From: Asterias amurensis
Taxonomy: Eukaryota
Reading direction: 5' to 3'
Assembly: GCF_032118995.1 (NCBI RefSeq)
Contig: NC_092661.1
Span: 18,173,185 to 18,237,184 of the forward strand
DNA: 64,000 nucleotides
Below the pieces are notes generated by a model, which ran no database searches, was not told the DNA's origin, and saw nothing but the letters and a program-made list of their open reading frames with translations. This document shows, piece after piece, positions 11,031 through 42,983 of this stretch; position 1 is the stretch's first letter, and the number at the start of each line of letters is the position of its first letter. A program made the translations under genes and the position numbers.

Positions 11031-11109
11031 TGGCCTTTTTTAATAAAAACAAATTTATTTTTAAAATGCAAATTTTAGCAAAAGTAGGTTTTTCTTTTTC
11101 TTATTCTAG

Positions 11110-20931: not shown

Positions 20932-21609
20932 TTATTTGTAATAATTATTTCCAACTGCATTATACATCCTGAGGAAGTGGACATAGCCGGTGTCAAACCC
21001 AACCATAGCACTTTGATTATCAGGTGAGAAATCAAAGGATGTCACTTTGGCTAGTGGTAGCATAAAAGTCCCTACAGGTTGATTCAAGCCTACCTTTGAG
21101 GAATGCAATGCACCATCAGAGATGTGATTTGCAATGACTCCTTGTAACTGTTTTAAGAGAGGTTTGTTTGGGTTGATGTAGCCCTGTGCTGGGGCCAGTA
21201 TCCCACTGTAAGACCCAGGCATACTTATCGTCTCCAATGGACCCTCAAGATGCTTGTTGAAGACATCAATGACACCACTAAAGGTTTTCTCCTCAGATTG
21301 TTGACCTTTTCCGCGAAGCATTTGTCTGGTTTTCATGGAGGCATCGGTGCGCCTGCTACATCTCTGATAAAACACCACACATTTATCCATTAAAAATTCA
21401 ACTTGGTGTAATCGACATTCAGAAGTTGGCATATTGAACTTCCTCAGGACGCGTTGGCGGTGGACATCCCATAGTTGGAGCAGTGCTGAGGACCGGTAGA
21501 ATTCCAACTTGTCAAATTTGATAATAGATGCTCTCTTCTGTTCATCAGTCATTTGGAAGGAGAGAGTGACCAGCATAGTGCTTTCTGCATCAAGGGCGGC
21601 AGAAGTAAT
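20932..21609 (-). CDS. NWD-like terminal exon 24 (coding part). The stop codon is at 20934-20932.
   Basis: The acceptor is tctcttccttgccgatag. The translation is ITSAALDAESTMLVTLSFQMTDEQKRASIIKFDKLEFYRSSALLQLWDVHRQRVLRKF...GFDTGYVHFLRMYNAVGNNYYK followed by a stop. The first canonical AATAAA on the minus strand (plus tttatt at 20581-20586) lies about 345 nt downstream. Confidence 0.65.
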   Translation of the reverse strand: MTSAALDAESTMLVTLSFQMTDEQKRASIIKFDKLEFYRSSALLQLWDVHRQRVLRKFNMPTSECRLHQVEFLMDKCVVFYQRCSRRTDASMKTRQMLRGKGQQSEEKTFSGVIDVFNKHLEGPLETISMPGSYSGILAPAQGYINPNKPLLKQLQGVIANHISDGALHSSKVGLNQPVGTFMLPLAKVTSFDFSPDNQSAMVGFDTGYVHFLRMYNAVGNNYYK

Positions 21610-24600
21610 CTATCGGCAAGGAAGAGATGAGAGAAGCAAATCGAACAATGTTCTGTAAGGCAGTTTTCCAAAGTAATGCAAGATCGAATTAGAATGTAAA
21701 CATATGAGAATGAAGTAAATAACTGTTTGAAAAGAAAGAACATTAGAACCATCTCTTCTGGCTCTCAGCTCCCACAATTTGTTTTTCATTGTTCAACCTT
21801 TCTTCATCTTCTTTGTCTTCTAACTATAACACATGCATACATGTATGTTCTGGTAATAAACTCAAGGATGCCTCATAAGTGAACTTAATTACTGTAGCTT
21901 ACAAGCCTGAGGAAACCTGTAGAAAAGGGTGCTTGCTATGTAAACCAGAAACAATGGGTTGAACCCCATCTCCTCCATGATACGCTCTCTGGGTTATTTA
22001 TAAATGTCCCATCCAAAAGATAGAGGAATTATGACATAGCACCTTGATCTAGGACACAAGTTCATTAATGGGGACTCAACCCCACACTCTGCTGATCAAA
22101 TACACCAGAGCTTGAGTCTAGTGCTGTTAAACCTTTGGCATCACAGATCTAACAAACTACTAATTGACAAGGTAGAAACTAATGTAAGCAATGATGTCAT
22201 CCAGGGAAGAAATCACATCAAGATATTGGTCCAACAAAAGAGATGGGAATTATTTTAAAGATCTTTTCACAACCAAGAGTGCGTTTTGGCGACCCCAACC
22301 AAAAACCGTTTCTGACGTCATAACAAATACGGTAACCGAGCTCACAACTCGGTTATCATTCAGTCTGAACGGTAGAACCAACGACCATAACCGAAACAGT
22401 TTTTGGTTGGGGTCGCCAAAACGTACTCCAAGGGTGGTTTCGTACAGCACCCATTGTTGACAACATAGATCTACATGAACATACCAATAAATCTGGACTA
22501 TGTTTGAACTCCTTCACATCTTGGGGATAGTCCTGGATGCCTGGTACGATAAGTGGGTTAAGTTTCCAATCCTGGATGGCCCTTTCTGGCAACACCTCAT
22601 ACAGGTACAGCATGCCTGGACGGTTGGAGGTGGTAAAGCAAGTCAAAAGCGCCTCTCGGAAAATAGTGAAGATGTAGTGTGGGTTCACATAGGGAATCAG
22701 CCTGAGCAGAAAGAAATAATATAATAATAATATAATATCGAAGTCTTATATAATGCACATATCTACCAAACAAGGCGCCGAGTATATACAAACTTTCAGA
22801 AAGATAGGTAACTGCAGTGATGAAGAACAAAAAGAGGAAGAATATTAACTCTTCATCTTGGTTGACTTTACTAAATGCCAAGGTTTTTCAACCATCTGCC
22901 TATTTTTTTCAACAAGAGTTTCACTGAAAAATACGTTTCAAGTTCAAAGTAAATTTTTGGGTGAGCAATTTTTCAAAGCTATGCTCACGATCTTGAAGAA
23001 GTAATGGACAAAAACGGAAGTTTAAAAAATAAATCATTTTGAAAGCTAAACTTGGTGTGAATCCTATCGTAGCCATAACCATCACACTTGCATTATGCTG
23101 ATTCGTAAATCTGAGTTCTCCAAGGCTCTTTAAAAAAAATTGCCTTCAACAAGATCTGTACATAATATCTGCTGCAATGGGCAACCTTCATACATCTGAC
23201 TACCAGCCATTTCTTCTCCCTTAATCTTGGCTTAGTTCCGTTACCTGTGCATTCCTTTGATGACTCTGTTGTTTATTGCAAGACGGGGGCTGTTAATATT
23301 CCAGATGTCAAAATCACTTCCATTACAAGCGCTGGCCACAAAATCATCAGACATACATAACAGTTTCCCAGGTCCTACATGCATAAAAATGAATGAAAAG
23401 AAAACATATTGAATGTATATTTCATCTATAGTTATTATATTGGTTTAGTAGAGCAAAGAAGAGTATTGTCACTTTTCATCAACAATCTGTCAACAATTAT
23501 ACATGTTTACCACAAACATAGGAAGAAACTATCAATAAATAGTGAACTTGTGGGTACAACCATGTGTAAATCTTTTTTGTGGGAGTGTTGGCTCTGAAAA
23601 GTGGAAGTGTCGTGGCCGAGCGGTTAAGAGCACCGAATTCAAACTCTGGTGTTTCTGATCAGCAGAGTGTGGGTTTGAATCCCCAGGCATGACACTCGTG
23701 TCCTTAAGCAAGACACTTAACCATTGCTTCATCCTTCAGATGGGACGTAGAGCCGTTGGTCCCATGTGTTGTGTAATGCATGTAAAAGAACCCAGTGCAC
23801 TTATCGAAAAGAGAAGGGGTTCGCCCCGGTGTTCCTGGGGGTGGCTGCTGAATGCACCGTAGCACCTTGTTAAAACCATTACATGGTGCTAAGGATTAGG
23901 TCTCATAATTTAAAAAACTTTGTCCCACTCACCTTGCAGTAAAAAAATTGGCGCTTTGTATCCTTTGGAAAAGGCGCGTTATAAATCGGTATTGACGTTT
24001 CAAACAGTATAGTCTGCTCGCCTTTTTGATTGAGCCTCAATCTCTATACACAGTATAGTGGGCTTAGCACTTGATCTTAGCTCAAATTATAGCACTGTAT
24101 CGATTTACAACTTCTCTTTTGTATTGTAATACAAATTGTATGTATCAAAAGCTACTCACAAGCTTAGCAATTGACAAAAAAGTCAACTCATTTCTGAACA
24201 AAAATTTGAGCAGTTATTGTTCATTTAATAATGAGGAAAGATTAGACAAGATAACCTCAAATGTAGACTTACTGCAAGATTCTCCAGATCGTAGTTGGAG
24301 TACTACATCAGGTGGTGTTTTAGTGACGCTCCACAACCAGTGGTCCTCATTTTGTTCACATGAAGTCACAGCATGACGACCATCTGATGAATACACACAG
24401 CTCTGTACAGGCCCATCATGATTCTATAGAAAACAAGATTAAAGCAGAACATTGAATGAACAACGAAATAGATTCATTATGCTGATTGTGCATTCATTAC
24501 ACTACCAATCAAACTGCAGGCAAGCTCATACATGTACATTATCCAGGGATGTGGTAGGCTATTGTAAAAAAAACGTGAACTATGAGCGCAAGAGAGAAAT

Positions 24601-27600
24601 CTTGCGAGCCCAAAAACTTGCGGGTACGAAGCCTGCTTGCATACATTTGTCTTTGGGTTTGAAAGTCCTACTCTGCAACCTGGGGGATCTTGATGGTTTT
24701 ATCATCATTTTCTTATGAATTTGATCCAAGTAATAAAACACAATTAACTTTTTGATTAATTATTTTTATTCTATTTTTTATTTATTTATTTAATTATTTT
24801 ACTTTATTTTTCCATAATTATTATCGATTATTTTCATTTCCATCCCAACCAGGCACATTTCTTACCAGATCTTTATCAGTGACGCTTCCAGTCATATTAG
24901 CTGTGTCCCAGATCCTAACAGATTTGTCTTGACTCCCTGTAGCAAGCAACAAATCGTCACTCATCGTCTCTCCAAAGTCTGCTGATAAGACAGGCCCGAT
25001 GTGGCCCTGTAACAAGCACCATTCCACGGTAGGGTAGAGACGAAGTACCTTCAGAAAATACCAAGAAGATTTGTTCAATAGAAAGAAAATCAAACATACA
25101 GTTTATACAAAGAAGTAGTCTGTAACATTTTTGCTCAAATATAATAATAATAATAATGATTACATTTATATAGCGCTTTATACCAAAAATAAGTTTCTAA
25201 GCGCTATTAAATATAGCTTCTCATCATACCGATAAGGGACCAAACAAATTTGCTCCTTTTAGACTTGGTTTGTAGGATTTGAAACTTTGCATGGTGGAAA
25301 TACAATATGGAAATGTTTGCGGTAACACCATGTTACTGCAAACCTTTCCAGACTTGGTTTGGTCACATCAATTTGTTTTGAATTTAATTGGGAAAAGCAC
25401 AGCCAGACTCCAACACAAAATATTAAGAAGGTTACTAACTAATATTTGATCACAAATAAAGTCAAACTATATGTCATTGATCGAGCTGTGTGTTAGCCTA
25501 ATAAGGCTTCACAAAAATATCCATCACCAAGGCATTATAACAAAATTAGGATTGCCAAAAATACACGAGTTACACTATTTAACATACCTTTAAATCACTG
25601 TCCCCAACCAAATTAGCAATGAACTCCAAGTTATGAGAGATGACATTATTGGCTCCCTGGCTGTGTAGGGACAATTTGTGGCCCTCAGTTTTGGTCTTGT
25701 TCCCCTTAACAACCCAGCGATATGTGCCGTTTGGAAGAACCCCTAGCAGTTTGCGGCCATCTTGGGAGAAGCGTAGACTGGTGTTGTTCAACTGCCCTTT
25801 AAGATTTTCCGTTTCAAAATGTTTGGTGTCCTATGAATGGGGAAATTGGGAAAAAATTAGATTACATTGAAAACTATTTAAGAAAATATGAAAAAGCTCT
25901 TGATTATTGTCATTACAGAAATAGTGGCCTACAGTAGAATTCTGTTCAGTAAAATATTAAGTTTGCCTTAATATCAAATAGCATTTTTAAGCCACAACAA
26001 AATTTTGAAATTTTTGCATTAATGTTTGGTTCCATCATAGCAATGAAGTAAAGATTAAAAGTGTTGGTAGTTCTTGAGCAAAAAGCGAGGTTCGTCCCAC
26101 ATTCCTAATGTACAATCTTAAACTGAACAAAATGCATAAAACCTTTAAGGACAGCTCATGCGTAAACAAAAAGGCAGTTTAAGTGCAGTATCAGTTTATT
26201 TTCAGCTTTAGCTTTTCAGCAACGAAGGCGATTGCCTCCATGCCCCTTGGTCATTGCCTTGGTGCCCTTAAAATGCTCCAGTACAATCTTTACATAGGGT
26301 GCCCTTTACCAAGGAGAAATGCCTTGGCGCCTTGCCCTTTCAAAAAATAGAGCATACAGGTCTGCTATTAGGATTTAATATTTCAGTGTGTGGAGGATCT
26401 TGTTACTTACTGTCTCCTTGGCAATGTCCCATAGATAAACATCCTTGTAAGCAATGGCTACCATCTTACCACTTGGCATGAAGGTGACTGCTTTTGGGCG
26501 ACACTGTAATTCAAGAAAAATGCATATTAAAACAACATCCAGATATAGCTGCAAGGCAACTCATTCTCTGGGAACCCTCATATGGAGTAGCCTCTCGAGG
26601 TGGTCAGACGCTAACCTACGTGGACCAATTGCGTTGTCATACTGAGCTAACCACTGCAGCTGAGATCAGAACAGCCATGGGAGATTATGAATGGCGTGCT
26701 CCTGTTGCAGTCCGACAAGAGTCGACTTGATGATGATGACATTATAACAAAGGGTGATTTAAGGATTTGCAGGTTTAAAAAATTTTGGTGTATTGTCAGT
26801 AGAACATTCATGCTTCATACTTTAAACCCAGAAATGTTTTACTTAATTAATAAAATAAATTAATTCATATGCAGTTTAACAACGCCCCACCCCCATTATT
26901 TATTAAAATTCTGAAACAAAATTATGTTTTCGAAGTTTGTTTTGTTGTGTGTCCTACAATAAAATTGAAACCATTTTTCATGCATATGAGCGCAGCGAAG
27001 GAGCATGAAATTGTAAATTCAGTTCTACAAAACAACTATCGGACAATAGCAAAAACAAATTAAAAAAAAAACCAACAAAAAAGAAGCTAAATCCAAGCAG
27101 TTCTCTATTATTACAATAATAATAATAAGACATTTGTAAAGCGCCTAATGCAAAAGCCTCTAAGTGCATTAAAGAAACAATAAAATAAACAATTAGAGAA
27201 AGATACAAGATACAAATAGGCAAATTACAAAAAAAGAAGCTTTAAACAAATGAGTTTTCTACAAGGACTTAAAACATTGTAAAGTATTAGCTTGGCGAAT
27301 ATGCACAGGAAGACTATTCCAAAGAAACAAACTCTTTCAAATGAAAATCATGGATGTGATTAATGAGTGGATATAGCAGTAGAGGATTGTTAAGAACTAA
27401 GGAGGGATTAAGTGGAGGGGGGGGGGAGGCCATTACGTACCTTGAGTTCCTTTCTTTGGATCAGCTTTCCATCGTGAGTGCCATAGACATAGAGACGACC
27501 AAAAGTCACTATGTAGATATGTCTGTTAGTCTTTGGTATAAAGACAGTCACTTGGGTGTCGATCTCCAAAGGAATATTAACAGAAAATTTACCTAAAGGA

Positions 27601-30600
27601 ACAAACAAACCATTGAATGAAAACTGTGTAGTTTTGTACTTATTTCTTTCTTTTGTTGCTTTTGTATTTCAAAGTGCTTTGTATAGAATTTGTAAAAAAC
27701 ACTTTATAAGTAAACTTATATGATTATTATATTGTGCATAATGATGGCCTTATTTTCGAACCAAACCAGATCTTCTTCAGAGGCATAAACAAGTACAAAA
27801 AAATACATATCCATTTATAGAAAAAAGAGGGGAAAAGGATTTAAAGGCAGTGGACACTATTGGTAATTACTCAAAATATCTATTAGCATAATACCTTTCT
27901 TGGTGACGAGTAATGGGGAGAGGTTGATGGTATAAAACATTGTGAGAAACGGCTCCCTCTGAAGTGCCATAGTTTTCGAGAAAGTAATTTTCCATGAATT
28001 TGATTTCGAGACCTCAGGTTTAGAACTTGAGGCCTCAAAATCAACCATCTAATCGCACACAACTTTGTGTGACAAGGGTGTTTTTTTTTCATTATTATCT
28101 CGCAAATTCAATGACCGATTGAGCTCAAATTTTCACAGGTTTGTTATTTTATGCATATGTTGAAATACACCAACTGTGAAGGCTAGTTTTTGACAATTAC
28201 CAATAGTGTCCACTGCCTTTAAGAGACGGATCCAGAAAAAAAGGGAAAATTATAGCCAATCAAAGTTTATATTTCAGAAACAATTGGTGGCTATGAACCA
28301 ATAGGAGTGGTGAGGACAAAGGATGTTCAGTATGTTCTATTATTATAATATGCAATATAAAATCTAACCTACATGTGAGCCAACATACCTTTAGCATATC
28401 CTCCCTGTCCGAGTCCCAAGAGTTTTACTCCAGTCTTTTCTAGAACAGCCAACCAATAACAATGACCTGCAAACTCCATCTTGATTGGCTCACCTTCAAC
28501 TGTTACTTCTAGGGCTCCACTTGCAACCTGAAATAACACAACCTCTTTTATTAAAATGAGCGTACTGAATGAGTCGTTGAAAGTTAAACGACGTGGTTAT
28601 GACTATGACTGACAGGCTATTTGTTTTCCCAATAAGCCATTTGCGAGTAAGATTTGAATAATGTCTGGTACATTGACTTGCTTAGTCGCAATGTATTGCT
28701 TACATTTGGATTCCTCAGACTATAGAGACAGTTGCTGTGTCAAATGGTTCGGCGCAAGCTTTTTGTATAGCAACCTCCAGATGAGCAAACCCTGGTGTAC
28801 CATTGAGCCATACACATCCATTCAAAATTGTGTGTGGGTGTAACACATGGGTGTAACTAAGCAAAAGTTTGCTCCTAATCATGTGTCATAGTAACTGTCT
28901 TGATAGTCTGAGGATAGGAATTGAAATTTAAGTGGTAACTTGTGATCAAGCACATCATTGTACCAGACAATATTAAAATCTTACACGCAAATAGCTTAAA
29001 GATATACGAGTTAACATAATTGATAATGTCTACTTGCATGCTAGTTCAAAGCAATGCAGATGAATCAATTGTAGAATATTATTTTTGCAACACATTAGAT
29101 CCTGTTGAAATGTTTTGTGATCTTTAGGCTGCTCTTAAATGAAAAGAGTAGAGCATTCATTTAAATGGAGTGTCCAAAGAAACACTCCTTTTGAAAAGAT
29201 CAATAATTTTAAGTAAAAATGGAGCATGATTTCATGAATATAAGATTCAGTGTTTCCTTGTTCACATTTTAAACTTTGCTTTTCCCTAATACTTTCAAAC
29301 ACTCTCTGTTTTATGATATTGTGTAGTTTCTTACCCGCCAAACTCTGATGGTGTTATCTTGGCAGAAAGTTGCCAAATACTTGCAATTCTTGGAGAATTG
29401 ACACAGGGCAACAGGAGCTGTATGGGTCAATGTCATGATCTCTGCCCCGTGACACTGCTCCTTGGACAAGTCTAACCAAGTAAACACTGGGGACAAATTG
29501 GGATAGATAACAAAATGAGAAAATAGAATTAGCTGCTGCAAACAACTTACCAACCAAGAGGACCGAAGGTATAAATGCAAAAATAGTGGAATGGCCTGAA
29601 GTTGACCCCTGCAGAGTCTTCTCCAGAGAAAGACTCTGCTAGGGTCAAAACAGTGTTCGAAACGTCAGGCCATTAACTATTTTTTGATTTGGACAACTTA
29701 CTGACAGTGAAGAGAATCTATTACTTTTGTATTGTAAATAAAAAGAAATAATAATAATTAAGGCGTAAATAAAAAGTAATAATAATAATAAAGATGTTTA
29801 ATGAGCACAAAACTAGGTGTTCAAGGCGCAGTAAAAAAAACAAAAAAACACACAAAAAAACTCACTGTTTTTTCCATGTACAGTCAGATAGTCCTTGGCA
29901 TATGCAGAGCAAGACGATGAATCAGGTTCGTTTAATGCTTGTTGACAAATCAGCTGTGGGTATTTCTGGATCATAGAAGCATTGGAACGTACCATGCGGT
30001 AAAAGTCCTTCAATTTACCGCCAAACTCACACTTATCAGCAGCCTGCAGAATACAGAAAGCAAATCTAGTTGTTTGAAACTTTTCTAAAACACTCAAAGA
30101 ATACCCATATACACCGCAACGTGTTAGTACTGTATACTAAGTACTTTCCTGAGCTCTGTGAAAATAACCACAGGCATATTACTCAGGTGGCATATTACTC
30201 ACAGGTATATTATTTATCCCTGATGCAACATTCCATCTACTTAATTGTTTCTTTTATGGGTAATGTTAGCACAAGAAAATGTTAAACTATTAAAAGTTTA
30301 CAACTTTGAGAAGCATGAATTGTAACATGGAGAAAACTGTTGAGTACTGTTTTAAAATATAGGCATAGATGTAAATCAATGAATGTCGATGGAATACGCT
30401 CCAGAAGGCAAGCATATTTTAACAATAATACTCCCAAACTATTAAATTAAAAAAAGCGAATAAAGAAATCACAAACATTCTGTACTGCTACAGGAACCAA
30501 GCAATATAATTTTGCATAAATAGCAGACACAGGTTTTGTCTATCATTTGTTGGACATAAGGAAGCTGCAAAATTAACCCATCTGCATAAGCTGTATTGAC

Positions 30601-33600: not shown

Positions 33601-36600
33601 TCAGCGTAAGACTTCAGGGTTCTAGTCATGACGCACGTGTCCTTAGTAAGACAATCAATCATGAACGCTTGGACCTTCGAATAGAAGCTAAACTGTAGGT
33701 CCTATGTTTTATTTATAACATAAAAAAGGACCCAGTGATAATAATAAAAATAATAATAGTGGCTTCTTATATAGCGCACATATCCATTACTCAGTGACGC
33801 TCAGTGCATCTACTGTTAAGAGTAGCACTTACTGTTAAGAGAAGGGGCTTGCCTCAATTGCACGCAAGTATTATATAAATGGGTCTCGTAATACAAAAAC
33901 TGAGATGCCCGCAGTTAAAGAGCTACACAAGAACTGAGTGTTATTATTACCATTGACAGAAACAACCCTACCATAGCATAATCTTGTCCAACATACCTTC
34001 ACTAAATTTCTCATTGCAGAAAGGGCACCCCCAGCATTGGGTCGTATAGTAACGATGAGATGAACATGTTTTGGGAGCACAGGACAAAGCCAATGGAGGT
34101 CACGACCTTCATTCTCATTGGTCAGCTGATCCAGCGAATCAAGGAAGATCACTACAAAAAAAATACAAAGACATCACTTTTGTTTAATATCAAATGCAGG
34201 AATTTTGAGGGCATATCAATCTTGAAATCATCAACATATTTGTCCAGCTGGGCATCTTGTATGTACTTTCAGCTTTTATACCTTTATATAGAGTATTGTG
34301 GCTTGTACTATTTTTTGTACTATTATGGTAATTTTATGTAATTTTTGTAAATTTGATGTAAAGGCCGAAAAGAATTTCCATTCATGAATAATAAAGTGAA
34401 ACTGAACTTAATGTATTGCACTTCACTATAAATCTGATAAGAATACAATATACATGAAAATCTTCAATATTTTATCATCTGTCTAGCTTAATGTTCTGCT
34501 GAAATTACGAGTGATTCAAAAGTACTAATAAAACCAGCTCAGTCAACATCACAATCTTAAAAAAAAATGTTTTCGCGTGTCAACAAATTAACTTCAGTTG
34601 GACATCAGTTGTCTTGCTGAATCTGCACACTGTCCACCAAGTATCTTGTTTATTCATGCATTAAAGCAAATGCATGACACTAGTCAAGTTTAATAGATGT
34701 TTGGACTTACTGATAGGTTTCTCTGCAGAAGCTTTGCCGAGCAGCTCCACAAATCTTCTTGTGAGTAGTTTGTACTCTGTTGGCACTTTAGAAAGGTCAA
34801 GATTCAAGCAGTAACTCAGCTGGAAATAGAAAAAGATGAAATCAAAATCAAGTATTGACCCCTTGCACGCACGTCACACTGTGCCACGCTCACCATTTTG
34901 GTGGTCAATGGGTTTACATGTAAACGCTGCGTCGCCTAAAATGCGCACTTCACTGAATAACGCAAAGTGGCATTGACCTCCAAAATGGCGCATCCAAGAT
35001 TATTCTGATGACAGCAGGTGAATTGGGTCAATAGCAATATTTTTTTGATCATTTCTTGTGTGTTCAATCGGACAGGTATATATTTTGTTGTCAAGGCTGG
35101 TTAAAGGGTTAATACTTGAGCCTAAGCAAAAAAGCAAGGCCATAGGTTTAATCATAGTGCTAAACTTACCTGTAAGCAGATGAAGTAGAGTAGATCTCTA
35201 ATGTTGGAGGAGTTTGGTGTGATAGCAATGAAGCGCATGACATGGATTGGTCTAAGAAATAATAATAAAATAATTGGAAATAATTATTTTAATTTTTATT
35301 CAGTTAGTTTAATTGGGAAAGCAGGATTTATAAAAAATATAGAGGGACATCATTTGCCCAAGATTTTTCACCGTAAACTTAAATGAACATTACAGAATAG
35401 GCAAGAAAAAACAACTCTAAGATCACAGATTTACATAAAACTTACAGAGTCCCTTGAAATATTTCCGTCTTAAATGTCATATTTGATGAGAATTTAAAAA
35501 AACAAATTTACAATGTACAATTTGGAGTTTATCACTCAGTGTTTCATTTTTAAAATTTGTTTTAGTCATCCGGTAGTCATGTAAAATGTGTCATCGTTCT
35601 TTTTCTCGTGACCCAGATGGCCGATTGATCTCAAACTTCCACAGGTTTGTCAGTTTATGTATATGGTGGATTACATAAAGTGCTAACACTGCCAGCAACT
35701 GTTTTGGTAGCGAAAGCCAATTCTGTAGTGTTCCTTTAACAGTCCAAATATTTTCTTAGGGAAACGAGCTGCAAAAACAGTATCAAATTCAACCTATGTC
35801 AATTAGTGAATTAGTGACAGAATACAAATCATTAATTAAACTGAATGAAAACTATTTCTAACTGAATGATAATAATAAGCACTGTAGAAAGCAACAAAGA
35901 AATAAACATTGTTGTAAATTAAAATAGAAATGAGTTTTTAACATGGCTTTGAAGAATTCAAGAGATGATGCCAGACCAGTGGATGTGAGAAGGAAAAATG
36001 TTAGTGCACCGACTGTGAAGCTTGTTAGCCATACTGGATATAAGTGTGGGGTGCAGCAGACCAGCACAAATCACAAATCCCTAATTGTTTAGACCTACCT
36101 TCCAACATTACAGCCTTCCCATGAATCAAGAGACTGACTAATCACTTTGGCTAGCAGTGATGTCTTGCCACATCCACCACAACCATGAACCACAAATGGC
36201 TATAAAACACAAACAAAAAATTACATTTGTCAGAAATTACTAAGTATATTTCATCTGAATTTGATCATGGAGAAGTTACCTGGGCAGTTGCTATCAGCAG
36301 GCAAATTAAAGTGTCAACAATTGAATTAGTAATATCTAAAAAATATACGTAACTTTTAAAATTGTGCAGTAAAAAGAGAATATTTTCAAAGAGAAAGATT
36401 TTGAGACTTTTTTGGGATGATACGGACAACATTATTCTCTATACTGGGCCTTTTACTCAAAGACTACTTCTGTGGATTATCCAGCCATAGAGAGAAAGGC
36501 CTCAAAGACTGGGTCTATGAGAAAGACGGACTGGATCCTTTCTCTATGATACAGCCATGCACAAAACAAAACTCTATCAAACTGTTTTCACCTGGAAAAA

Positions 36601-39600
36601 TGAAACCATATTGCCCAATACATAATAATAGGTTCTTGTAAGCACCTTATAACATCCCTAGGTATCAAAGCGCTCACTATTTGTTTTTCAACAAGATAAG
36701 CAGAGCTGTATTTTGAAGACCCACGTATGTAGCAGCTTCTATTGGTTTACAATATGCTGTGGCGCTTTCAGCAGCTACTGTAAGCAACACGGGGGCAAAC
36801 CCCTTCTCTTGACGATAAGAGTAACTGAGTTCTCTTAAAGCCATTGGACCCTTTCGGTAAACAGTGTTTTCCAAGGCCCACACTTTGTGTACCACAACTT
36901 CTACATCAAATAACAAACCTGTGAAAATTTAGGCTCAATCGGTCATTGGAGTCGGGAGAAAACAACGGAAAAACCCACCCTTGTTTCCGCGCGTTTCGCC
37001 GTGTCATGACATGAGTTTTAAAAAAATCCGTAATTCTCGTTAACGAGAATTTATATTGTTTTGCTGTTTTCTCAAAAAGTAAAGCATTTCATGGAGTATT
37101 ATTTCAAGAGAAGTCTTTCACCATTGCCTTCTGTAAACCCTGTAAGTTATTTGTAAATCTGTGAACTTTTATTTTTTTTTTCTGAACCGAAAGGGTCCAA
37201 TGGCTTTAAGTGCATTACACATCAGAAGGGACCTACGGCTATACGCCCCATCTTAAGGATGAAACAGTAATGGTGCAGTGTCTTGCTTCAGGACACCAGT
37301 GTCAAGGCCAAGGCTCGAACCCAGAGTCTGCTGATCAGAAACACCAGGGCTCGAGTCTGGTACGCTTGAAGGCTCAGCCAAAAGAGTAATATTTGAAACT
37401 TTATAGTTACACATCAGGTGAATTATGAACTTACCCTTAATCCATGTGGTAGTTTCAAATAAGCACTAATGCCCCTGATGAGGTTCTCTCGTCCAGCAAA
37501 CAGGTCTGCTCTCTCACGGCAGAATATGCTATGACTAATTACCTCTGAGAACAGAGGGTTATCCATTGAACTCATCAAAGATAAGGCACCTGTGCAAGGG
37601 GTCAGAAACAACAGCCAAATTAAACAACTGTAGATCTCTTCTTTTTTTGTCAAGGAAAATGAAATCTGTTGATAATCAAAGCTTCTCCAACAGTAATACT
37701 GCTGTAAAATATTGGAATGTATTTGTTAAAAGGACAACAAGTTGTGATGCTATATAACCAGGGATGTAAATAGGCTATTGAAAAAAAAAAAACATGAACT
37801 ATGAGCGCAAAACGTGAAAGCTTCGAGCACAACACTTGCATATTCTCATTGTTTGACCCATGTGAAAGCCGCCTACGAGTAGAGTCACATTGGGTTCCAT
37901 GAAGGAGATTGATCTTACCTTTGTGGACGGATTTCACAAGATAATCACAGAAATTATCCAGGAAACTTTTCAGCTTTTCTCTATTTTGACTATCGTTGTA
38001 CATGGCATCACTATCTGGGTAAAACCGGAGACTGTACCTGAAAAGACAAATTTTAAAAACGTGGTGTGAATAGGTACAGGGAGTCTCCCATAACCTTTTA
38101 AGAAGCTCACACCCAAAAAGAGTTGATAGTGGCTTCTTATATATAGCGCGCATATTCCTCACTCAGTGACGCTCAAGGCGCTTGAACACACAGTTTTTTC
38201 CTGCAAGGTATGTGGGACTACACTTGAACTATGAGTTTTACTCTTTTTACATGTTGTGGCCCAATATGCTGCCAATTAAACCATGAACACCGGGGCAAAC
38301 CCCTTCTCTTTTCGTTAAGTGCACTGGGTTCTTTTACGTGTGTTACAAAACACACAAAACCAACAGCTCTGCGCCTCATCCGAAGGACGAAGCAATGGTT
38401 AAGTGTCTTGCTTATGGACACAAGTGTCACGGCTTGGGATTCGAACCTACACTCTGCTGATCAGAAACATCAGAGTTTGAATTTGGTGATCTTAAATACT
38501 CGGTCACGACACTTCCACATTACACACACCACACATTAAAAAACTTTTTTGTTCTCCTTCTTTTATCACAGAGAAGTTTTGAAATATCTTTGTGGTATAT
38601 AGGATTTGAGGCATTGCATGGTGAAGTATCAATGTATATTTCGTTTGCGGTAACACCATGTGTGTATCTACTTGCCAGGTAGAGTTTGTTCTTAGAGAAC
38701 TGTCTTGCTTTATTCTACTGCCACGGAGTAGATAATCGGAGGTTCGGGATACTTCTCAGTTCTGAAAAGAACTGTCCTGCTTTTTAACTATTACCAGGGT
38801 GGATGGTATAGAAAATAGACTGGACTATTACTTTAGCTTATAGAATCGTAATTAACTGTACTGCCGCGGAGTCAGTTCTGAATTGGTCTCAATTTTCGAC
38901 TAGCTTGCTCTAGTCATCGTCATCTTTGTGGTCTCACCACATACTCACTTCTGAATTCGATCTGAACTTATGGTGTCACTGATGTTTGTCATGAGATTCT
39001 CAAGTTTCGTCTGAGCCTCGTTGTCCAACTGCCCGTCTGCCTGATCAATGTAGTACTGAGTCCCCGCATTCTTCAAGTCAAAGTTGGTGAAATTCCTCTT
39101 GAAAAAATGAAAACGGTTGTGGTCCGTCTCATGATTCCCCTCGATTGCCTCGGCGATTTCACCCTCTGTTATCGAGCGTAAGATTTCCTCTTTGATTTTG
39201 GGGTTTAAAGACATGTTCTTGACGGCAGCAAAGATGGCACTTCGCATTGTTGTGAATAAAGCCCACCAATCGTCTCTCTGTTTAGCATCATTTTTCTGGT
39301 TGGGAAATTTCCACGTGATGGGCTGCAGTACATATTCTGCTTCTGTAAAGTTAATTTTGAAGATAGGAAAACAATGAGAAAATGTAGAATGAGAGCAGTA
39401 TGTTAGTTTTGCAATGAAGATATCCACCACCTTATTAAGGTGCTTCTAACAAGATGATCCTGTAATAGAGAACTTTGTATCCAAAGGAACATAGCCACTT
39501 TTGTTGAGTTAAAAGTTCTTGCGTTATCAATTAATAAACCACAAGGAAGGACTAAGTAAATTTAAAATAATTTGGGGTTGAACAAAGAAAATTTTAATAG

Positions 39601-40274
39601 GGTGGGATTAGAACCAGCAACCTCCGGCACATTCAACTGGATGTCTATGGTTCTAGTCAATTTTTCTTTGTTCAACCCCCAAATCATAATAAGGGAATCA
39701 ATGTGTGGTGAAGAGGTTTTCAACTAGTGGTTTAATCCCAACGAGGCCTGGTTCTTGATAATTTTACCGAGACGAAGTGAAGGTAAATCTATGAACATTT
39801 TCTTTACATGCCTGCGTGAAATTTCTTACTGATAGAATTTGTGTCCAGAAGAAACCATTGTCTGATGTGTTTCAGTGCTTCTCCTTGCTGTTTGTCTGTA
39901 TCAGCCTTTTGTCGCATGTATTCAATCAATGGCTCTAGTATAACTTGTGGGATACGATACTGGATTGGACGGAAACCATATTTCTGACCGAGGATACACA
40001 CAAAAAACGGTCCAACTGAGTTTTCCCTGCGTGAATAAAGACAAAAACAAAATAATATCAAAATTCAATTCAATTCAATTCAATTCAATTCAATTCAATT
40101 CAAGAATACATTTGTTTCCATACTCTCATAAAAGAATAACAACAGTTACATGTATTACGGAGTAAAGCAAAACATTTCTTTAAGTAAGAGTAAACATGAA
40201 TAAATAAATAGAGTACGGGCCGCTTTGGTAAGCATAAGCTTGTTAACAACAGCCAGACAAGAAAACGAGACAAC

Positions 40275-40306
<32 letters not shown>

Positions 40307-41747
40307 AAGGACAGATGAACATAATACATGACACAACAAATTCATAATAGAAGCGACAAGCTGGCAGAACAGTTTAAGCTGAAAATAAATAAGACAAGTG
40401 AAATGTAGACTACAAGCAACAGAGGAAGCAGTTAAAGATTTGAAGCCATGACATTCCACAATCAATTTGTACTAATTTACTTCAGATGCAAGAATTTCTA
40501 TTTAACTAATTTTTAATTTTGGGATGAGAACAATAAAGCAAGAGAAAAAGTCCTGATTTATCAGAAAGACTTTTTGGTCTGATATGAATGCAAGCACTGC
40601 GTAAGAAATGAGTGTCATTTATGAGGGTTGACTCTTTGTAGAGCACCCAAATTTGATTTACTTTTGCAAGCAGAAAATGCTACTCATAAAATATGTATCA
40701 TGGACTTTAAAATACAAGGATACATAAATTCTTATTATGTATTTGTGTCCAGTCAATTCTTAAACCAGCTTAGCCCATTTCCCAAAGATAAGTCCATCGT
40801 AATCCTAAAGAGTTGCAAAGTCTACTGTACTCAAATAGTTGCACCACAACATATTTCAAATGACATTGTTCCTTTTAACCTTGCAAAAATTGTTAAATGG
40901 CTTCACATTTCAATCCTAGAAGATTCTTTTTTAATGAATACAATTATTTAGCCTTATAAAAAGATTCTGCTAGAGTAAAAATTGTGATATCATTACAATT
41001 CAATAGATGTTAAATTGCCTGTGTTTTTTTCACAGACCTCTAATAAGTACTGAGAATACAGTGCTAACAAACATTGGTGTACGTGATGGGTAAAACCCAA
41101 ATGAACACCATTACAACTGTGTTGCATTCATACTATAGGTCGTTTTGGTTAGTAAGTAGTTTGCAATAGCTAATATTTGTTTCTTCCTTTTATCTTTGAT
41201 TACCTGCATCTAGCTACCTCCTCTAGACATATATCACTGGCCATGTGAGCATCACACACTGTCTGTCGTATACCCCATCTCATGTCTACAGCATTGAACT
41301 CCATCCCAATCTGCCGTGTGTAATCTCTAACATAGGGGTACACATCCTCCATCAGAAGGTTCCTCTCCAGCTTCATGTCAGTGAAAGTAGAACTGATGAA
41401 GACCCAGACCTCACGGGCGTTTCTTTTGAGGTGTGCTGGTGCAACTTCCCCACGCATGGCTGAGAGAAACTCCGCCGAAGCCTCCTTGTCATTCATAGCA
41501 TCTTGAACTCTCTCACGTTCTATTTCAAATTTATCTCTCGCTTCATTGAGGATTGTTTTCCATGGTTCCCGTTCCCTGCGGTCGGTATTCCAGAGTCGGT
41601 TTCCTGATCCGCCTTGCATGCGAATCATAGCAATGTGGGACAATTTCATGGGTTTTAATTTTTGCCATGTTTTGAACTTGCGATTTCCTGCAGGAAGAGT
41701 CAGGCCACTTTGACCCATTGTCCCTGCACCGTTACCCATTTTGGTGT
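20932..41747 (-). CDS. Gene span of a NACHT and WD40 repeat protein (NWD1/NWD2-like, STAND NTPase with a DUF4062-like N-terminus). It has 24 coding exons. A putative noncoding first exon lies upstream near 42407-42440.
   Basis: Exon 1 translation contains VWVFISSTFTDMKLERNLLMEDVYPYVRDYTRQIGMEFNAVDMRWGIRQ (DUF4062-like), as found at the N-terminus of NWD proteins. The Walker A motif GCGGCGKTSLL sits in exon 6. The motifs ILGQKYGFRPIP, VIFLDSLDQL and LAMYFLG resemble conserved NWD segments. The C-terminal exons carry WD40-type motifs (TIRVWR, SQDKSVRIWD). Every junction has an AG acceptor and a GT donor, phases are consistent, and the total coding sequence is 5016 nt (1671 aa). Confidence 0.8.
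22485..22701 (-). CDS. NWD-like exon 23
   Basis: The acceptor is tatttctttctgctcag. The translation is RLIPYVNPHYIFTIFREALLTCFTTSNRPGMLYLYEVLPERAIQDWKLNPLIVPGIQDYPQDVKEFKHSPDLL. The donor is TTATTG|gtatgt. Confidence 0.6.
23244..23373 (-). CDS. NWD-like exon 22
   Basis: The acceptor is tttttatgcatgtag. The translation is RPGKLLCMSDDFVASACNGSDFDIWNINSPRLAINNRVIKGMH. The donor is CACAG|gtaacg. Confidence 0.55.
23601..23950 (+). mobile_element. tRNA-derived SINE with an A-box (GTGGCCGAGCGGTTAAGAGCAC) and a B-box (GGGTTTGAATCCCC), in NWD intron 21. The 3-prime end is uncertain.
   Basis: GTCGTGGCCGAGCGGTTAAGAGCACCGAATTC...AGCAGAGTGTGGGTTTGAATCCCCAGGCATGACACTCGTGTCCTTAAGCAAGACACTTAACC is read here. 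Related fragments lie at 22055-22135, 36755-36835, 37215-37375 and 38225-38520. Confidence 0.65.
24273..24423 (-). CDS. NWD-like exon 21 (WD40)
   Basis: The acceptor is tcttgttttctatag. The translation is NHDGPVQSCVYSSDGRHAVTSCEQNEDHWLWSVTKTPPDVVLQLRSGESC. The donor is TTGCA|gtaagt. Confidence 0.6.
24866..25048 (-). CDS. NWD-like exon 20 (WD40)
   Basis: The acceptor is tattttctgaag. The translation is VLRLYPTVEWCLLQGHIGPVLSADFGETMSDDLLLATGSQDKSVRIWDTANMTGSVTDKDL. The donor is GATCTG|gtaaga. Confidence 0.65.
25588..25830 (-). CDS. NWD-like exon 19
   Basis: The acceptor is tttcccaatttccccattcatag. The translation is DTKHFETENLKGQLNNTSLRFSQDGRKLLGVLPNGTYRWVVKGNKTKTEGHKLSLHSQGANNVISHNLEFIANLVGDSDLK. 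The donor is TTAAAG|gtatgt. Confidence 0.65.
26411..26503 (-). CDS. NWD-like exon 18 (WD40)
   Basis: The acceptor is tttcttgaattacag. The translation is CRPKAVTFMPSGKMVAIAYKDVYLWDIAKET. The donor is GAGACA|gtaagt. Confidence 0.6.
27441..27592 (-). CDS. NWD-like exon 17 (WD40)
   Basis: The acceptor is tttgttcctttag. The translation is GKFSVNIPLEIDTQVTVFIPKTNRHIYIVTFGRLYVYGTHDGKLIQRKELK. The donor is CTCAAG|gtacgt. Confidence 0.65.
27841..28223 (+). mobile_element. MITE family A copy, in NWD intron 16
   Basis: It runs from TTAAAGGCAGTGGACACTATTGGTAATTACTC to GGTAATTACCAATAGTGTCCACTGCCTTTAAG. Confidence 0.8.
28389..28527 (-). CDS. NWD-like exon 16 (WD40)
   Basis: The acceptor is tgttatttcag. 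The translation is VASGALEVTVEGEPIKMEFAGHCYWLAVLEKTGVKLLGLGQGGYAK. The donor is CTAAAG|gtatgt. Confidence 0.6.
29335..29486 (-). CDS. NWD-like exon 15 (WD40)
   Basis: The acceptor is tcccaatttgtccccag. The translation is MFTWLDLSKEQCHGAEIMTLTHTAPVALCQFSKNCKYLATFCQDNTIRVWR. The donor is TGGCGG|gtaaga. Confidence 0.7.
29866..30043 (-). CDS. NWD-like exon 14
   Basis: The acceptor is tgtattctgcag. The translation is AADKCEFGGKLKDFYRMVRSNASMIQKYPQLICQQALNEPDSSSCSAYAKDYLTVHGKN. The donor is AACA|gtgagt. Confidence 0.55.
31366..31609 (-). CDS. NWD-like exon 13
   Basis: The acceptor is cttcttacag. The translation is RWADTPKPYREKGSGNMAVTHRGVQSQPLVISSGSATRHNSVADIDSLKTSKSPKKIHWNLRKLTELPRHIIRGNLWEDADR. 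The donor is GATAGG|gtgaga. A tandem duplicate of the acceptor plus the start of this exon sits in the upstream intron (see findings). Confidence 0.65.
31533..31727. repeat. Tandem duplication of 90/91 bp (two copies with a 14-bp spacer). It covers the acceptor and the first 76 nt of NWD exon 13.
   Basis: Copy A (31533-31622) carries the real acceptor and exon start. Copy B (31637-31727) is 97% identical, with one A-to-G and one C-to-T substitution and a 1-nt indel, and lies in the upstream intron. Confidence 0.85.
32169..32313 (-). CDS. NWD-like exon 12
   Basis: The acceptor is tcccgtctaaag. The translation is GDYLVEGGVDNVVVYRWYHRLFYEKARQLYLSDSAALLHQALAMYFLG. The donor is GGAAG|gtaggc. Confidence 0.6.
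32341..32480 (+). mobile_element. MITE family A copy truncated at its 5-prime end, in NWD intron 11
   Basis: CTTAAAGACACTGAACACTATTTATTGGTAATTACTCAAAATGATTG ... GAGGAACGGCTCCCTCTGAAG is present, but the right half is missing. Confidence 0.6.
32619..32818 (-). CDS. NWD-like exon 11
   Basis: The acceptor is ttttattttccacag. The translation is ELEVKHGEIFVRHALGYLTASATGLSANELIDVLSCDDVVLDDVFEFHIPPIRRLPPLLWTRLRLDL. The donor is CTTAG|gtgagt. Confidence 0.7.
33117..33379 (-). CDS. NWD-like exon 10
   Basis: The acceptor is ctaatctgtag. The translation is NEDSYFEIVRLDEQDQHNIIDLMLSKSGRSLTPDQKQIVLHAHHDETPTPLFMRLACDIAKKWKSYTPLKECKLADSTPGLIEQLFN. The donor is AACGA|gtatgt. Confidence 0.65.
33470..33592. 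mobile_element. MITE family G (AGGATTAATC..CCTAACTTAGGATGGGTTC..GGAACTTAAC..CCTAAGTCCTAAGATTAATCC..GGTGAAATCGAC), in NWD intron 9
   Basis: Copies at 48575-48745 and 63503-63675 share the body and the CGATTTCAC ... GTGAAATCG terminal inverted repeats. Confidence 0.6.
33997..34151 (-). CDS. NWD-like exon 9 (Walker B region)
   Basis: The acceptor is ttttttgtag. The translation is MIFLDSLDQLTNENEGRDLHWLCPVLPKHVHLIVTIRPNAGGALSAMRNLVK. The donor is GTGAAG|gtatgt. Confidence 0.7.
34711..34819 (-). CDS. NWD-like exon 8
   Basis: The acceptor is tctatttccag. The translation is LSYCLNLDLSKVPTEYKLLTRRFVELLGKASAEKPI. The donor is ATCA|gtaagt. Confidence 0.6.
35170..35251 (-). CDS. NWD-like exon 7
   Basis: The acceptor is tatttcttag. 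The translation is RPIHVMRFIAITPNSSNIRDLLYFICLQ. The donor is TTACAG|gtaagt. Confidence 0.65.
36099..36199 (-). CDS. NWD-like exon 6 (NACHT P-loop)
   Basis: The acceptor is gttttatag. The translation is PFVVHGCGGCGKTSLLAKVISQSLDSWEGCNVG, which contains a Walker A motif (GxxxxGKT). The donor is GGAAG|gtaggt. Confidence 0.8.
36838..37215 (+). mobile_element. MITE family B copy, in the NWD intron between exons 5 and 6
   Basis: It runs from TTAAAGCCATTGGACCCTTTCGG to CCGAAAGGGTCCAATGGCTTTAAG. Confidence 0.7.
37435..37589 (-). CDS. NWD-like exon 5
   Basis: The acceptor is cttgcacag. The translation is GALSLMSSMDNPLFSEVISHSIFCRERADLFAGRENLIRGISAYLKLPHGLR. The donor is AAGG|gtaagt. Confidence 0.7.
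37919..38037 (-). CDS. NWD-like exon 4
   Basis: The acceptor is tcttttcag. The translation is KYSLRFYPDSDAMYNDSQNREKLKSFLDNFCDYLVKSVHK. The donor is AAAG|gtaaga. The 170-aa ORF at 37650..38162 in the track is this exon fused to open intronic frame. Confidence 0.65.
38225..38520 (-). mobile_element. tRNA-derived SINE copy (same family as 23601), in the NWD intron between exons 3 and 4
   Basis: This is the reverse complement of the 23601 element (..GGTTAAGTGTCTTGCTTATGGACACAAGTGTCACGGCTTGGGATTCGAACCTACACTCTGCTGATCAGAAAC..). The ORF at 38231..38539 lies inside it. Confidence 0.65.
38601..38930. mobile_element. Family F MITE reduced to its left half. It ends about 19 bp from the donor of NWD exon 3.
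   Basis: It begins GGATTTGAGGCATTGCATGGTGAAGTATCAATGTATATTTCGTTTGCGGTAACACCATGTGTGTATCTACTTGCCAGGTAGAGTTTGTTC, but the right-hand inverted repeat is absent. Confidence 0.6.
38949..39342 (-). CDS. NWD-like exon 3
   Basis: The acceptor is ctttacag. The translation is KAEYVLQPITWKFPNQKNDAKQRDDWWALF...FKRNFTNFDLKNAGTQYYIDQADGQLDNEAQTKLENLMTNISDTISSDRIQ. The donor is CAGAA|gtgagt. Confidence 0.65.
39830..40026 (-). CDS. NWD-like exon 2
   Basis: The acceptor is ttcacgcag. The translation is (R)ENSVGPFFVCILGQKYGFRPIQYRIPQVILEPLIEYMRQKADTDKQQGEALKHIRQWFLLDTNSI. The donor is TCA|gtaaga. Confidence 0.7.
40066..40100. repeat. (CAATT)n microsatellite in NWD intron 1
   Basis: ttcaattcaattcaattcaattcaattcaattcaattcaag. 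Confidence 0.9.
40272..40310. repeat. (CAGA)n microsatellite in NWD intron 1
   Basis: cagacagacagacagacagacagacagacaaaaag. Confidence 0.9.
41204..41739 (-). CDS. NWD-like exon 1 (coding part). The exon probably begins at the acceptor at 41747.
   Basis: The ATG at 41739-41737 has the context ACACCAATGG. It translates as MGNGAGTMGQSGLTLPAGNRKFKTW...VWVFISSTFTDMKLERNLL...MRWGIRQTVCDAHMASDICLEEVARC. The donor is GATGCAG|gtaatc at 41203. Confidence 0.7.
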
Positions 41748-42369
41748 CTAAAATAATAAAATGTATCCACAAAAATAAAAAATTTGAGGGGGAGTAGTTA
41801 CTCAGGTTACATTTTTCTTTCAAGATGTTTTCGCTCCAATGTTGAACACAAAATTGAAGCAGTTATTATTCCAGCTGGTAAAAACAAAAGGGCAAAAGGT
41901 AAAAGATACGAGTAAACTTCATACAAATTTTCACAAATCAGGACATCTAGTGTGCATTAGTTGGGGGCCAAAAGGACAGAAGACGCCAAATACAAAATTT
42001 TGCCAACTGGTAAATTTCTCAAGTTGCAAAGAGAAATGCTTACAAATAAATAATAATATTAATCCAAGCGCAGTCATTTCTTCCTAATGAGTAATGCTGT
42101 GCAAAAATTATTAAGTACATTGTACGATCAAACAATTGTATGACGGCGTTTGTAGTGAAACCAATATAAGAAGGGTGGGGGGGGGGGGGGGTTGTTTTTT
42201 GTCCCTTCATATTTATGAGACAAAAAACCCAAAACAAGAGGTGTTCCGAGCCTTAACACCTAAAATAAGAAAATACCAGAATCAAAATGAGAATAAAGTT
42301 TATGTTAAACCTGATTTAAGATGTGAACAAACACTACAAAAGGTTCATTTCATTTGTCGTATAGACCTT

Positions 42370-42530
42370 AAATGCACATGACGTCATTTCAGTAGGGCGC
42401 CCTCACCTAGAGGTCAAAAGTAGGTTGTTCATTGGCCAATTAGTGTGCGCCGCGCGTACAAATGTGTGCGTTTCCGATTGTTTCGTCACCGTTTTTCCAC
42501 TAAGATGGCCGCTGGATGACGTCAATACAT
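42370..42530 (-). promoter_or_regulatory. Putative core promoter and 5-prime noncoding exon of the NWD-like gene. It carries two perfect CRE palindromes (TGACGTCA), a palindromic double CCAAT box (ATTGGCCAAT) and a CpG-rich stretch (GCGCCGCGCG). A GT donor follows on the minus strand.
   Basis: TGACGTCA occurs at 42379-42386 and at 42517-42524. ATTGGCCAAT is at 42441-42450. Reading the minus strand, CCTCTAG|gtgagg places a donor at 42406/42405, which pairs with the acceptor ttattttag|ACACCAAAATGG at 41749/41748. This would give a noncoding exon 1 of roughly 42407-42440. Confidence 0.4.
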
Positions 42531-42983
42531 AAGGTCTATTGGTTTAGTGATTCAGTACACAACAAAGTTGTACGATTTTATCAGACTCAAAGTCAACACA
42601 CAGTGAGCTGAACAACACAAAACCACGATACTTGTCCAGTTGCGAATTTACTGAATCAATGGTAAAAACACTGGCATGAGCATGTGGTCCAGTGTTAAGC
42701 CCTGAGTGTTCAACCAAGTTCTAGAAGTTGTTCCTACCTAAAAATTGTCATCGCAGCAGTTTAACTTGCCGTTACTGGTCTTTAAAAGTATTGTATATGT
42801 AGCATTTGAACCTTGAACCTAAAGGATCGCATATCAGACCATGGAGCTATTTTATAGCTCCATGATCAGACCTGCAACTGCCTCTAAACAACCTTTTAAG
42901 TAATGCCCAGACTACTGCAGTGTTGTTATATTTATTTAGTCTGGTACTTGAGTGAGATCAAACAAGAATCATGTACTCAGAAG

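Follow-up and report, generated by a model that had tools for sequence, protein, structure and literature searches.

A stretch of 64,000 nucleotides from the genome of the sea star Asterias amurensis (NCBI RefSeq assembly GCF_032118995.1, contig NC_092661.1, positions 18,173,185 to 18,237,184 of the forward strand; hereafter the window, numbered from its first letter) carries what its sequence identifies as an intact, single-copy, protein-coding gene for a STAND NTPase of the NWD/TEP1 class. The gene is read on the minus strand from an ATG at 41739 to position 20932, in 25 coding exons whose coding sequence of 5094 nt, stop included, specifies 1697 aa. We are highly confident of this identity and structure, and we regard the explanation as a whole (gene, domain architecture and likely mechanism) as probable. 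The gene is an ordinary further member of a widespread animal family, present in ~88% of the metazoan genomes surveyed (10.64898/2026.09.04.749371), and does not embody a new principle. Its value lies in providing a clean and complete invertebrate model of the NWD2 type, which keeps every active-site residue of the TIR-like NADases together with a strand lost in human NWD1; full-length invertebrate members of this sort are reasonable candidates for asking whether NWD proteins are activatable NADases.

The gene model combines homology with a systematic evaluation of splice sites. Open reading frame (ORF) fragments of the minus strand gave Pfam matches to DUF4062, HTH_NWD1 and WD40, and a rough concatenate of such fragments, used as a query, retrieved 37 homologues, led at 42% identity by an Apostichopus japonicus protein named 'NWD2', followed by a DUF4062 protein of Branchiostoma floridae (37%) and NWD1-like proteins of Mya arenaria (32%). 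The homologue proteins, compared with the window by tblastn, form a strictly collinear ladder on the minus strand from 41739 to 22473. Every GT or GC donor and every AG acceptor fitting the neighbouring coding blocks was enumerated and scored by splice consensus plus similarity of the junction peptide to eight homologues, while the last five exons were chained ab initio. In the resulting splice-aware reconstruction all 24 acceptors are AG and all 24 donors GT (48 canonical splice dinucleotides), the phases are consistent, and the sole stop codon lies at 20934-20932, with no in-frame stop or frameshift elsewhere in the coding sequence. The exons have a GC content of 44.9% vs 35.5% for the introns, in a window that is AT-rich (~36% GC) and resembles nuclear DNA of an invertebrate. 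By blastp the spliced protein is collinear with A. japonicus 'NWD2' (45% identity, 1183 aa) and aligns to the B. floridae protein from residue 528 to the C-terminus in both (36% identity over 1177 aa); at the chosen junctions there are no large indels relative to the homologues, except for segments absent from the amphioxus annotation itself. Among the candidate sites set aside were a GC donor at 37465, an acceptor at 30007 and the donor/acceptor pair 34054/33373; the strong canonical sites used in their place preserve the residue spacing of the family. The protein database searches found no relative above ~45% identity, and a query with the C-terminal 819 aa returned, apart from generic WD40 proteins, only a fragment from Strongylocentrotus purpuratus (44% identical, at 61% coverage). 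Within the window, tblastn of the homologues detected no second NWD-like gene, and neither the plus-strand ORFs nor the other ORFs inside the gene gave a Pfam match.

Coding exon 1 (41204-41739, 536 nt; tblastn and splice scoring) opens with the ATG at 41739 and encodes the N-terminus MGNGAGT, a leader of ~110 aa and the start of the DUF4062 domain, also called TeTIR (F114, RWG153-155, C171). This ATG lies behind an acceptor-like sequence, ttattattttag/ACACCAAAATG (the slash marks the splice boundary), and the homologues align from their own residue 1 against the protein starting there. Exon 2 (39830-40026, 197 nt), which contains ILGQKYGFRPIQ, was placed by tblastn and splice scoring with a junction spacing equal to the family consensus; exon 3 (38949-39342, 394 nt) encodes the TeTIR insertion and the motif SITEGEI with the candidate catalytic residue E306. 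For exon 5 (37435-37589, 155 nt) the strong donor AGG/GTAAGT was chosen, again with consensus spacing. Exon 6 (36099-36199, 101 nt) carries the Walker A motif GCGGCGKTS (K479), exon 9 (33997-34151, 155 nt) the Walker B motif IFLDSLDQL, exon 11 (32620-32819, 200 nt) the HTH_NWD1 winged helix and exon 16 (29335-29486, 152 nt) the first WD40 repeat (TIRVWR); exon 11 is the best conserved of all, with 86% identity to the sea-cucumber protein. Tblastn and splice scoring defined exons 4 (37919-38037, 119 nt), 7 (35170-35251, 82 nt), 17 (28389-28527, 139 nt), 18 (27441-27592, 152 nt) and 19 (26411-26503, 93 nt), and the same two methods together with the blastp alignment defined exons 8 (34711-34819, 109 nt), 10 (33117-33379, 263 nt), 12 (32169-32313, 145 nt), 13 (31367-31610, 244 nt), 15 (29866-30043, 178 nt) and 20 (25588-25830, 243 nt). 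Ab initio chaining and the blastp alignment support exons 22 (24273-24423, 151 nt), 23 (23245-23374, 130 nt) and 25 (20932-21609, 678 nt including the stop), joined by a Pfam match for exon 21 (24866-25048, 183 nt, with the WD40 repeat LATGSQDKSVRIWD) and by tblastn for exon 24 (22485-22701, 217 nt). Exon 14 (30791-30868, 78 nt) is discussed below.

The spliced protein has the NWD architecture. A Pfam scan of its full length against the curated cut-offs returned DUF4062 (PF13271) at aa 113-197 (35.8 bits, cut-off 24.7), nSTAND1 at 438-659 (30.6 bits, cut-off 27.1), NACHT (PF05729) at 467-640 (29.7 bits, cut-off 26.7), HTH_NWD1 (PF25469) at 695-806 (54.6 bits, cut-off 27) and WD40 (PF00400), with its best repeat at 1002-1035 (57.4 bits, cut-off 27); a weak match to the APAF1_C helical domain at 885-976 (18.8 bits) stays below its cut-off of 22.8. 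The NACHT assignment is joined by an intact Walker A motif of the form GxxxxGK[ST] (GCGGCGKTS at 473-481, K479) and an intact hhhhD-type Walker B motif (IFLDSLD at 566-572), and the Pfam matches place an NWD1-type winged helix after NACHT, and repeats of the WD40 type at the C-terminus. Partial matches to beta-propeller families extend across ~aa 985-1390, and a conserved C-terminal region accompanies the WD40 beta-propellers from ~aa 985 to the end. The order read from the sequence is thus a ~110-aa leader, the DUF4062/NIR/TeTIR domain (~108-430), NACHT (467-640), the winged helix (695-806), a helical domain, and the WD40 repeats with the C-terminal region (~985 to the end).

Like the A. amurensis protein (MGNGAGT), its closest homologues (P0001, P0002, P0008 and P0015) begin with short related sequences, MGTGISK, MGNAASV, MGSAGSI and MGCAASI, and share an MG(N/T/S/C)xxxS start. 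All of these agree with the general N-myristoylation consensus, G-{EDRKHPFYW}-x(2)-[STAGCN]-{P}. A conserved N-terminus of the N-myristoylation type, in some homologues of the palmitoylation type, is therefore predicted ahead of the ~100-aa leader, and membrane anchoring of the protein is a reasonable inference.

The DUF4062 domain, renamed NIR or TeTIR, has been identified as a TIR-like, Glu-dependent NADase domain that serves as the effector in several bacterial anti-phage systems and is active in human TEP1, where activity depends on E1008 (10.64898/2026.05.01.722283; 10.64898/2026.09.04.749371; 10.64898/2026.09.21.753143). The N-terminal region of the A. amurensis protein matches the solved structure of the human TEP1 TeTIR (PDB 11gz_A; phmmer, E=5e-11), in an alignment to the PDB that stops short of the catalytic motif with or without the insertion described below. 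The catalytic residue was located through TEP1 numbering, taken as the 11gz_A chain position + 893 from two anchors (F902 = chain 9, C959 = chain 66); a bacterial-type DUF4062 sequence aligned through chain residue 149 identifies E1008 as the second Glu in SVTEMEV. The A. amurensis protein is matched by a profile of TEP1-like sequences at 108-206 (E=1e-24) and, collinearly, at 294-326, where SITEGEI is aligned with SVTELEI. F114 would thereby correspond to TEP1 F902, RWG153-155 to its RWG, C171 to C959 and E306 to E1008, with ~88 residues inserted after the YG strand and ahead of the catalytic SxTExE motif. Among the 32 aligned homologues, which span animals, choanoflagellates, fungi and bacteria, F114, S116, S117, T118, F119, T120, D121, E125, R126 and R153-W154-G155 are invariant, as are C171, E174, C178, G196, T303 and E306. 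The protein thus has the candidate catalytic Glu as well as the Phe, the Cys and the RWG loop conserved with it, and its first beta-strand, VWVFISSTF, is kept. A structure model of a sea-urchin homologue is consistent with a TIR-like (flavodoxin-type) fold.

How such a protein might work can be drawn by analogy with APAF-1, TEP1 and the bacterial Avs-NIR systems. The WD40 region would be a sensor that holds the protein autoinhibited until a ligand binds; the ligand-bound state would lead to nucleotide exchange and oligomerisation of the NACHT domain, and oligomerisation would cluster the N-terminal TIR-like domains, resulting in NAD+ hydrolysis and/or recruitment of partners. We advance an NADase-effector mechanism of this kind tentatively, as one possibility. 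That the active-site residues are invariant speaks for retained catalysis, while the weak activity of the mammalian NWD proteins calls for caution over an enzymatic reading.

Several points weigh against the explanation as a whole. Full-length human NWD1 and NWD2, the nearest relatives to have been characterised, did not hydrolyse NAD+ in published assays, and neither did full-length human NPHP3 (10.64898/2026.05.01.722283; 10.64898/2026.09.04.749371; 10.64898/2026.09.21.753143), and the isolated human NWD2 domain is only weakly active (10.64898/2026.05.01.722283; 10.64898/2026.09.21.753143); conserved catalytic residues are therefore no proof of activity. The second TeTIR segment (294-326) is weak by itself (conditional E=0.033) and draws its support from being collinear with the first and invariant across the family. 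As to structure, the evidence is the model of the sea-urchin homologue, not one of the A. amurensis protein, and a Foldseek search against the PDB gave nothing significant. Affiliation with NWD2 rather than NWD1 is tentative, with indirect support from names and from the first strand; the exon chain and the 5' exon are predictions from genomic DNA, and the gene is presumed to be expressed.

The same gene could accordingly encode a protein whose TIR-like domain is non-enzymatic in vivo and which acts as an ATP-driven scaffold like vertebrate NWD1 or Caenorhabditis elegans QUI-1, a possibility that we take seriously. Beyond the inactive human proteins, this idea draws on mouse Nwd1, which binds Paics via its N-terminal region (PMC7186558), vertebrate NWD1 being an organiser of purinosomes that contacts Paics through DUF4062; on QUI-1, the worm NWD1 orthologue, which acts in ASH/ADL neurons (PMC8871372) and is required for sensory-neuron function; and on the fact that adaptor rather than enzyme roles are common among animal TIR domains. 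However, the invariance of F114, RWG, C171 and E306 across the 32 homologues is the pattern expected of purifying selection on an active site, the weak activity of the isolated NWD2 domain is of the Glu type (10.64898/2026.09.21.753143), and the strand VWVFISSTF is kept here, unlike in human NWD1. Taken to its full extent, the NADase-effector proposal would describe a membrane-anchored (N-myristoylated), ligand-activated enzyme whose E306-dependent NAD+ cleavage, serving cell death or immune signalling, is turned on when the WD40 region senses its ligand and the NACHT domain oligomerises, the ancestral NWD protein having been enzymatic. We consider this complete version doubtful. If true, it would make the protein an animal counterpart of the plant TNL receptors and the bacterial Avs-NIR systems, and mammalian NWD1 and NWD2 would owe their weak activity to a derived loss or to the requirement for an activator.

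Among known systems, the protein shares the succession of DUF4062/TeTIR, NACHT, NWD1-type winged helix and WD40 with vertebrate NWD2 (KIAA1239) and with the NWD2-like proteins of A. japonicus, Lytechinus pictus and B. floridae (C3ZM62). With NWD2 it also has in common a long TeTIR with a large insertion (~330 aa in human NWD2, ~108-430 here) and a complete first beta-strand, and with the deuterostome NWD2-like homologues an MGxxxS/G N-terminus. Based on the NCBI 'NWD2-like' names of the best matches and on this strand, the protein looks most like NWD2. Vertebrate NWD1 or NWD2 did not appear among the protein search results, and a search with the TEP1 fragment returned short exon-sized fragments only, full-length TEP1 or NWD proteins of vertebrates being absent from its results. 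NWD1 and QUI-1 belong to the same family and have the same domain order, in keeping with the 54.6-bit HTH_NWD1 match, and mollusc proteins annotated 'NWD1-like' are 30-32% identical to the A. amurensis protein. In contrast, human NWD1 is reported to have an N-terminally truncated TeTIR from which the first beta-strand is gone (10.64898/2026.09.21.753143), whereas VWVFISSTF and a ~110-aa leader are present here. TEP1 (vault/telomerase protein 1; PDB 11gz) likewise has a TIR-like domain directly upstream of NACHT and C-terminal WD40 repeats; unlike TEP1, the A. amurensis protein has no TROVE or vWA region and carries the ~88-aa TeTIR insertion, and it is a candidate NADase whereas TEP1 is a proven one. 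The three-part STAND layout, with an N-terminal effector, a central NTPase/oligomerisation module and a C-terminal repeat sensor, recalls APAF-1 and the plant TNL proteins, although by analogy only: the APAF1_C resemblance is the sub-threshold match mentioned above, the TNL proteins share a TIR-type effector, but the central domain is NACHT and not NB-ARC, the effector is TeTIR and not CARD or canonical TIR, and the repeats are WD40 and not the leucine-rich repeats of the TNL proteins. Two database entries deserve mention in this context. The amphioxus model C3ZM62 (P0002) seems incomplete, being without the P-loop segment (exons 6-7 here) and part of exon 18, and the S. purpuratus C-terminal fragment XP_011671199.1 (P0158), annotated 'WDR5A', seems misnamed.

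A preliminary description of this DNA had chained 24 exons on the minus strand, for a total of 5016 nt and 1671 aa. Its chain, splice sites, phases and frame stand, with one exon skipped: the present model minus exon 14 reproduces those figures exactly (5094-78=5016 nt, 1697-26=1671 aa, 24 exons), so that exon 13 was almost certainly spliced straight onto exon 15. Omission of exon 14 leaves the frame unchanged because it is 78 nt long with phase 0/0, and the closeness of an intronic repeat (30594-30776), 15 nt away, may be the cause of its having been overlooked. The 26 residues encoded, EMCSIPWLEAKCRTGRIYKLLLELAE, are 58-67% identical by tblastn to echinoderm and amphioxus proteins and align to amphioxus VMCSIPWMEAKCRTGRVYELTSELSQ; with an ACAG/GA acceptor and a GAG/GTAAGT donor, exon 14 is on this evidence a real coding exon. 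It might still be a cassette exon, the 24-exon, 1671-aa isoform being a genuine main or alternative product, as the preserved frame and an acceptor of only moderate score (1.2) would permit. But the segment is among the best conserved, is present in the homologues, has a strong donor and sits within the conserved helical domain that follows the winged helix and precedes the WD40 region, and we judge this alternative improbable.

Most other elements of the preliminary description held. The NACHT-WD40 gene with a DUF4062-like N-terminus is borne out by DUF4062, NACHT, HTH_NWD1 and WD40 matches above the Pfam cut-offs in the spliced translation, where a lack of significant NACHT or WD40 matches had been named as one refuting outcome; no in-frame stop precedes the terminal one. 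The NWD1/NWD2-like label agrees with the annotation of the best database relatives as NWD2-like or NWD1-like, and the coding sequence ends at 20932 as claimed. The quoted motifs VWVFISSTFTDMKLERNLLMEDVYPYVRDY, MRWGIRQ, GCGGCGKTSLL (exon 6), TIRVWR and LATGSQDKSVRIWD all occur in the spliced protein. The exon 2 motif given as ILGQKYGFRPIP actually reads ILGQKYGFRPIQ, one residue having been mistyped (...GFRPIP -> ...GFRPIQ), and VIFLDSLDQL is found in the genomic reading frame of exon 9 while the spliced protein reads MIFLDSLDQL. The description of the family as poorly characterised is partly outdated now that the N-terminal DUF4062 has been recognised, in 2026 preprints, as a TIR-like NADase domain. 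Finally, the upper bound of the gene, set at 42530, falls in a promoter-like stretch that is non-coding, and the ATG lies at 41739.

This putative promoter and non-coding first exon (42408-42540, minus strand) was delineated by reading the sequence: CCAAT boxes occur in it, as do two TGACGTCA sites, GCGGCCATCTT and a stretch with CpG, and it has a donor-like end, CTCTAG/GTGAGG, at ~42408. A non-coding first exon near 42.4-42.5 kb ahead of coding exon 1 is likely. At the other end, the first AATAAA after the stop, 346 nt downstream (20581-20586, minus strand), is a candidate poly(A) signal.

At the intron 12/exon 13 boundary (31534-31727), 104 bp are duplicated in tandem (98% identity over 90 nt), so that intron 12 contains a copy of the exon-13 acceptor (acttcttacag/GTGGGCT) and of the first 77 nt of that exon; the duplication appears recent. 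The upstream acceptor (exon start 31714) was rejected in building the model because reading through from 31714 meets a stop codon, which makes it a decoy that could give nonsense transcripts. A pseudogene, decaying or unexpressed, or a chimera of the assembly with an ORF that survived by chance, is a very improbable reading of the locus despite this duplicated acceptor and introns rich in transposable elements, since a 5094-nt coding sequence runs through 25 exons without stop or frameshift, 48 of 48 splice dinucleotides are canonical, all family-invariant residues are retained and the exons are free of repeats.

Repeats were sought by comparing the window with itself, and the following figures are a lower bound as only families with a second copy in the 64 kb are visible in this way. 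Fifteen repeat segments lie in the gene, in 14 different introns, and make up 3310 bp or 21% of the intron length; this is consistent with the preliminary count of at least nine intronic transposable element insertions, and the dense invasion by miniature inverted-repeat transposable elements (MITEs) and short interspersed elements (SINEs) proposed there is supported in substance, with a tRNA-like SINE family and MITEs with terminal inverted repeats of 25-28 bp. None of the 15 touches an exon. The intronic SINEs and MITEs are passengers that disrupt no exon, a typical intronic load.

The SINE is represented by four intronic copies, 73-86% identical: one in intron 22 (23595-23891, plus strand; self-comparison and copy alignment) and others at 38281-38524, at ~37211-37380 and, as a fragment, at 22043-22130 (all minus strand). 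Its consensus has a tRNA-like head in which TGGCCGAGCGGTTAAG is the A box and GGGTTCGAATCCC the B box, so that the RNA polymerase III boxes and dispersed copies of a tRNA-derived SINE are both present. The head was recognised from the alignment of copies; ARAGORN and Rfam (gathering thresholds), run over the whole window, found nothing, neither an rRNA nor a tRNA gene, and did not call the SINE copies tRNA.

Two families are short, non-coding, multi-copy and bounded by terminal inverted repeats, as MITEs are. The first, of ~390 bp, lies in intron 17 (27837-28226, plus strand) with 28-bp terminal inverted repeats (TTAAAGGCAGTGGACACTATTGGTAATT); it has five full copies in the window, and partial relatives at 32341-32467 and 35617-35675. 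The second, of 377 bp, lies in intron 5 (36834-37210) with perfect 25-bp terminal inverted repeats (CTTAAAGCCATTGGACCCTTTCGGT) and has two copies, the second at 16327-16704. Elsewhere in the window, copies of both families occupy 198-586, 12278-12641, 16327-16704, 51276-51654 and 55595-55972. Both are bounded by TTAA beside related terminal inverted repeats (TTAA-AGGCAGTGGACAC... and TTAA-AGCCATTGGACCC...), which suggests piggyBac-type target-site duplications and a common superfamily. The SINE at ~37211-37380 directly adjoins the 377-bp MITE and its alignment breaks at the MITE terminal inverted repeat; the arrangement across 36834-37380 suggests nesting, with one of the two inserted in the other. 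Other repeats include a foldback (palindromic) element in intron 16 (28633-28998, arms of 83 and 52 nt), a ~185-bp repeat in intron 14 (30594-30776, beginning 15 nt past exon 14) with an inverted copy in intron 7 (34853-35033) and weak terminal inverted repeats, and a foldback-type repeat in intron 3 (38597-38922) that matches 53336-53743 in both orientations.

Outside the gene, the region 6843-9144 is a satellite array in which a 105-bp unit recurs in tandem ~22 times at 69-97% identity; one of its frames stays open for as many as 175 codons, with no credible Pfam match. Two further tandem arrays next to it, with units of 141/155 bp (10060-11163, ~7 copies) and 100 bp (11411-12030, ~6 copies, 93-95% identical), lie in a region of strong GC skew (+0.22). 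A LIM domain (Pfam LIM, 48 bits; LIM_FHL2-3_N, 44 bits) is encoded by an exon-like ORF on the minus strand at 58555-58818, which is probably part of a neighbour gene of the FHL type (four-and-a-half-LIM-like), upstream of the NWD gene and on its strand.

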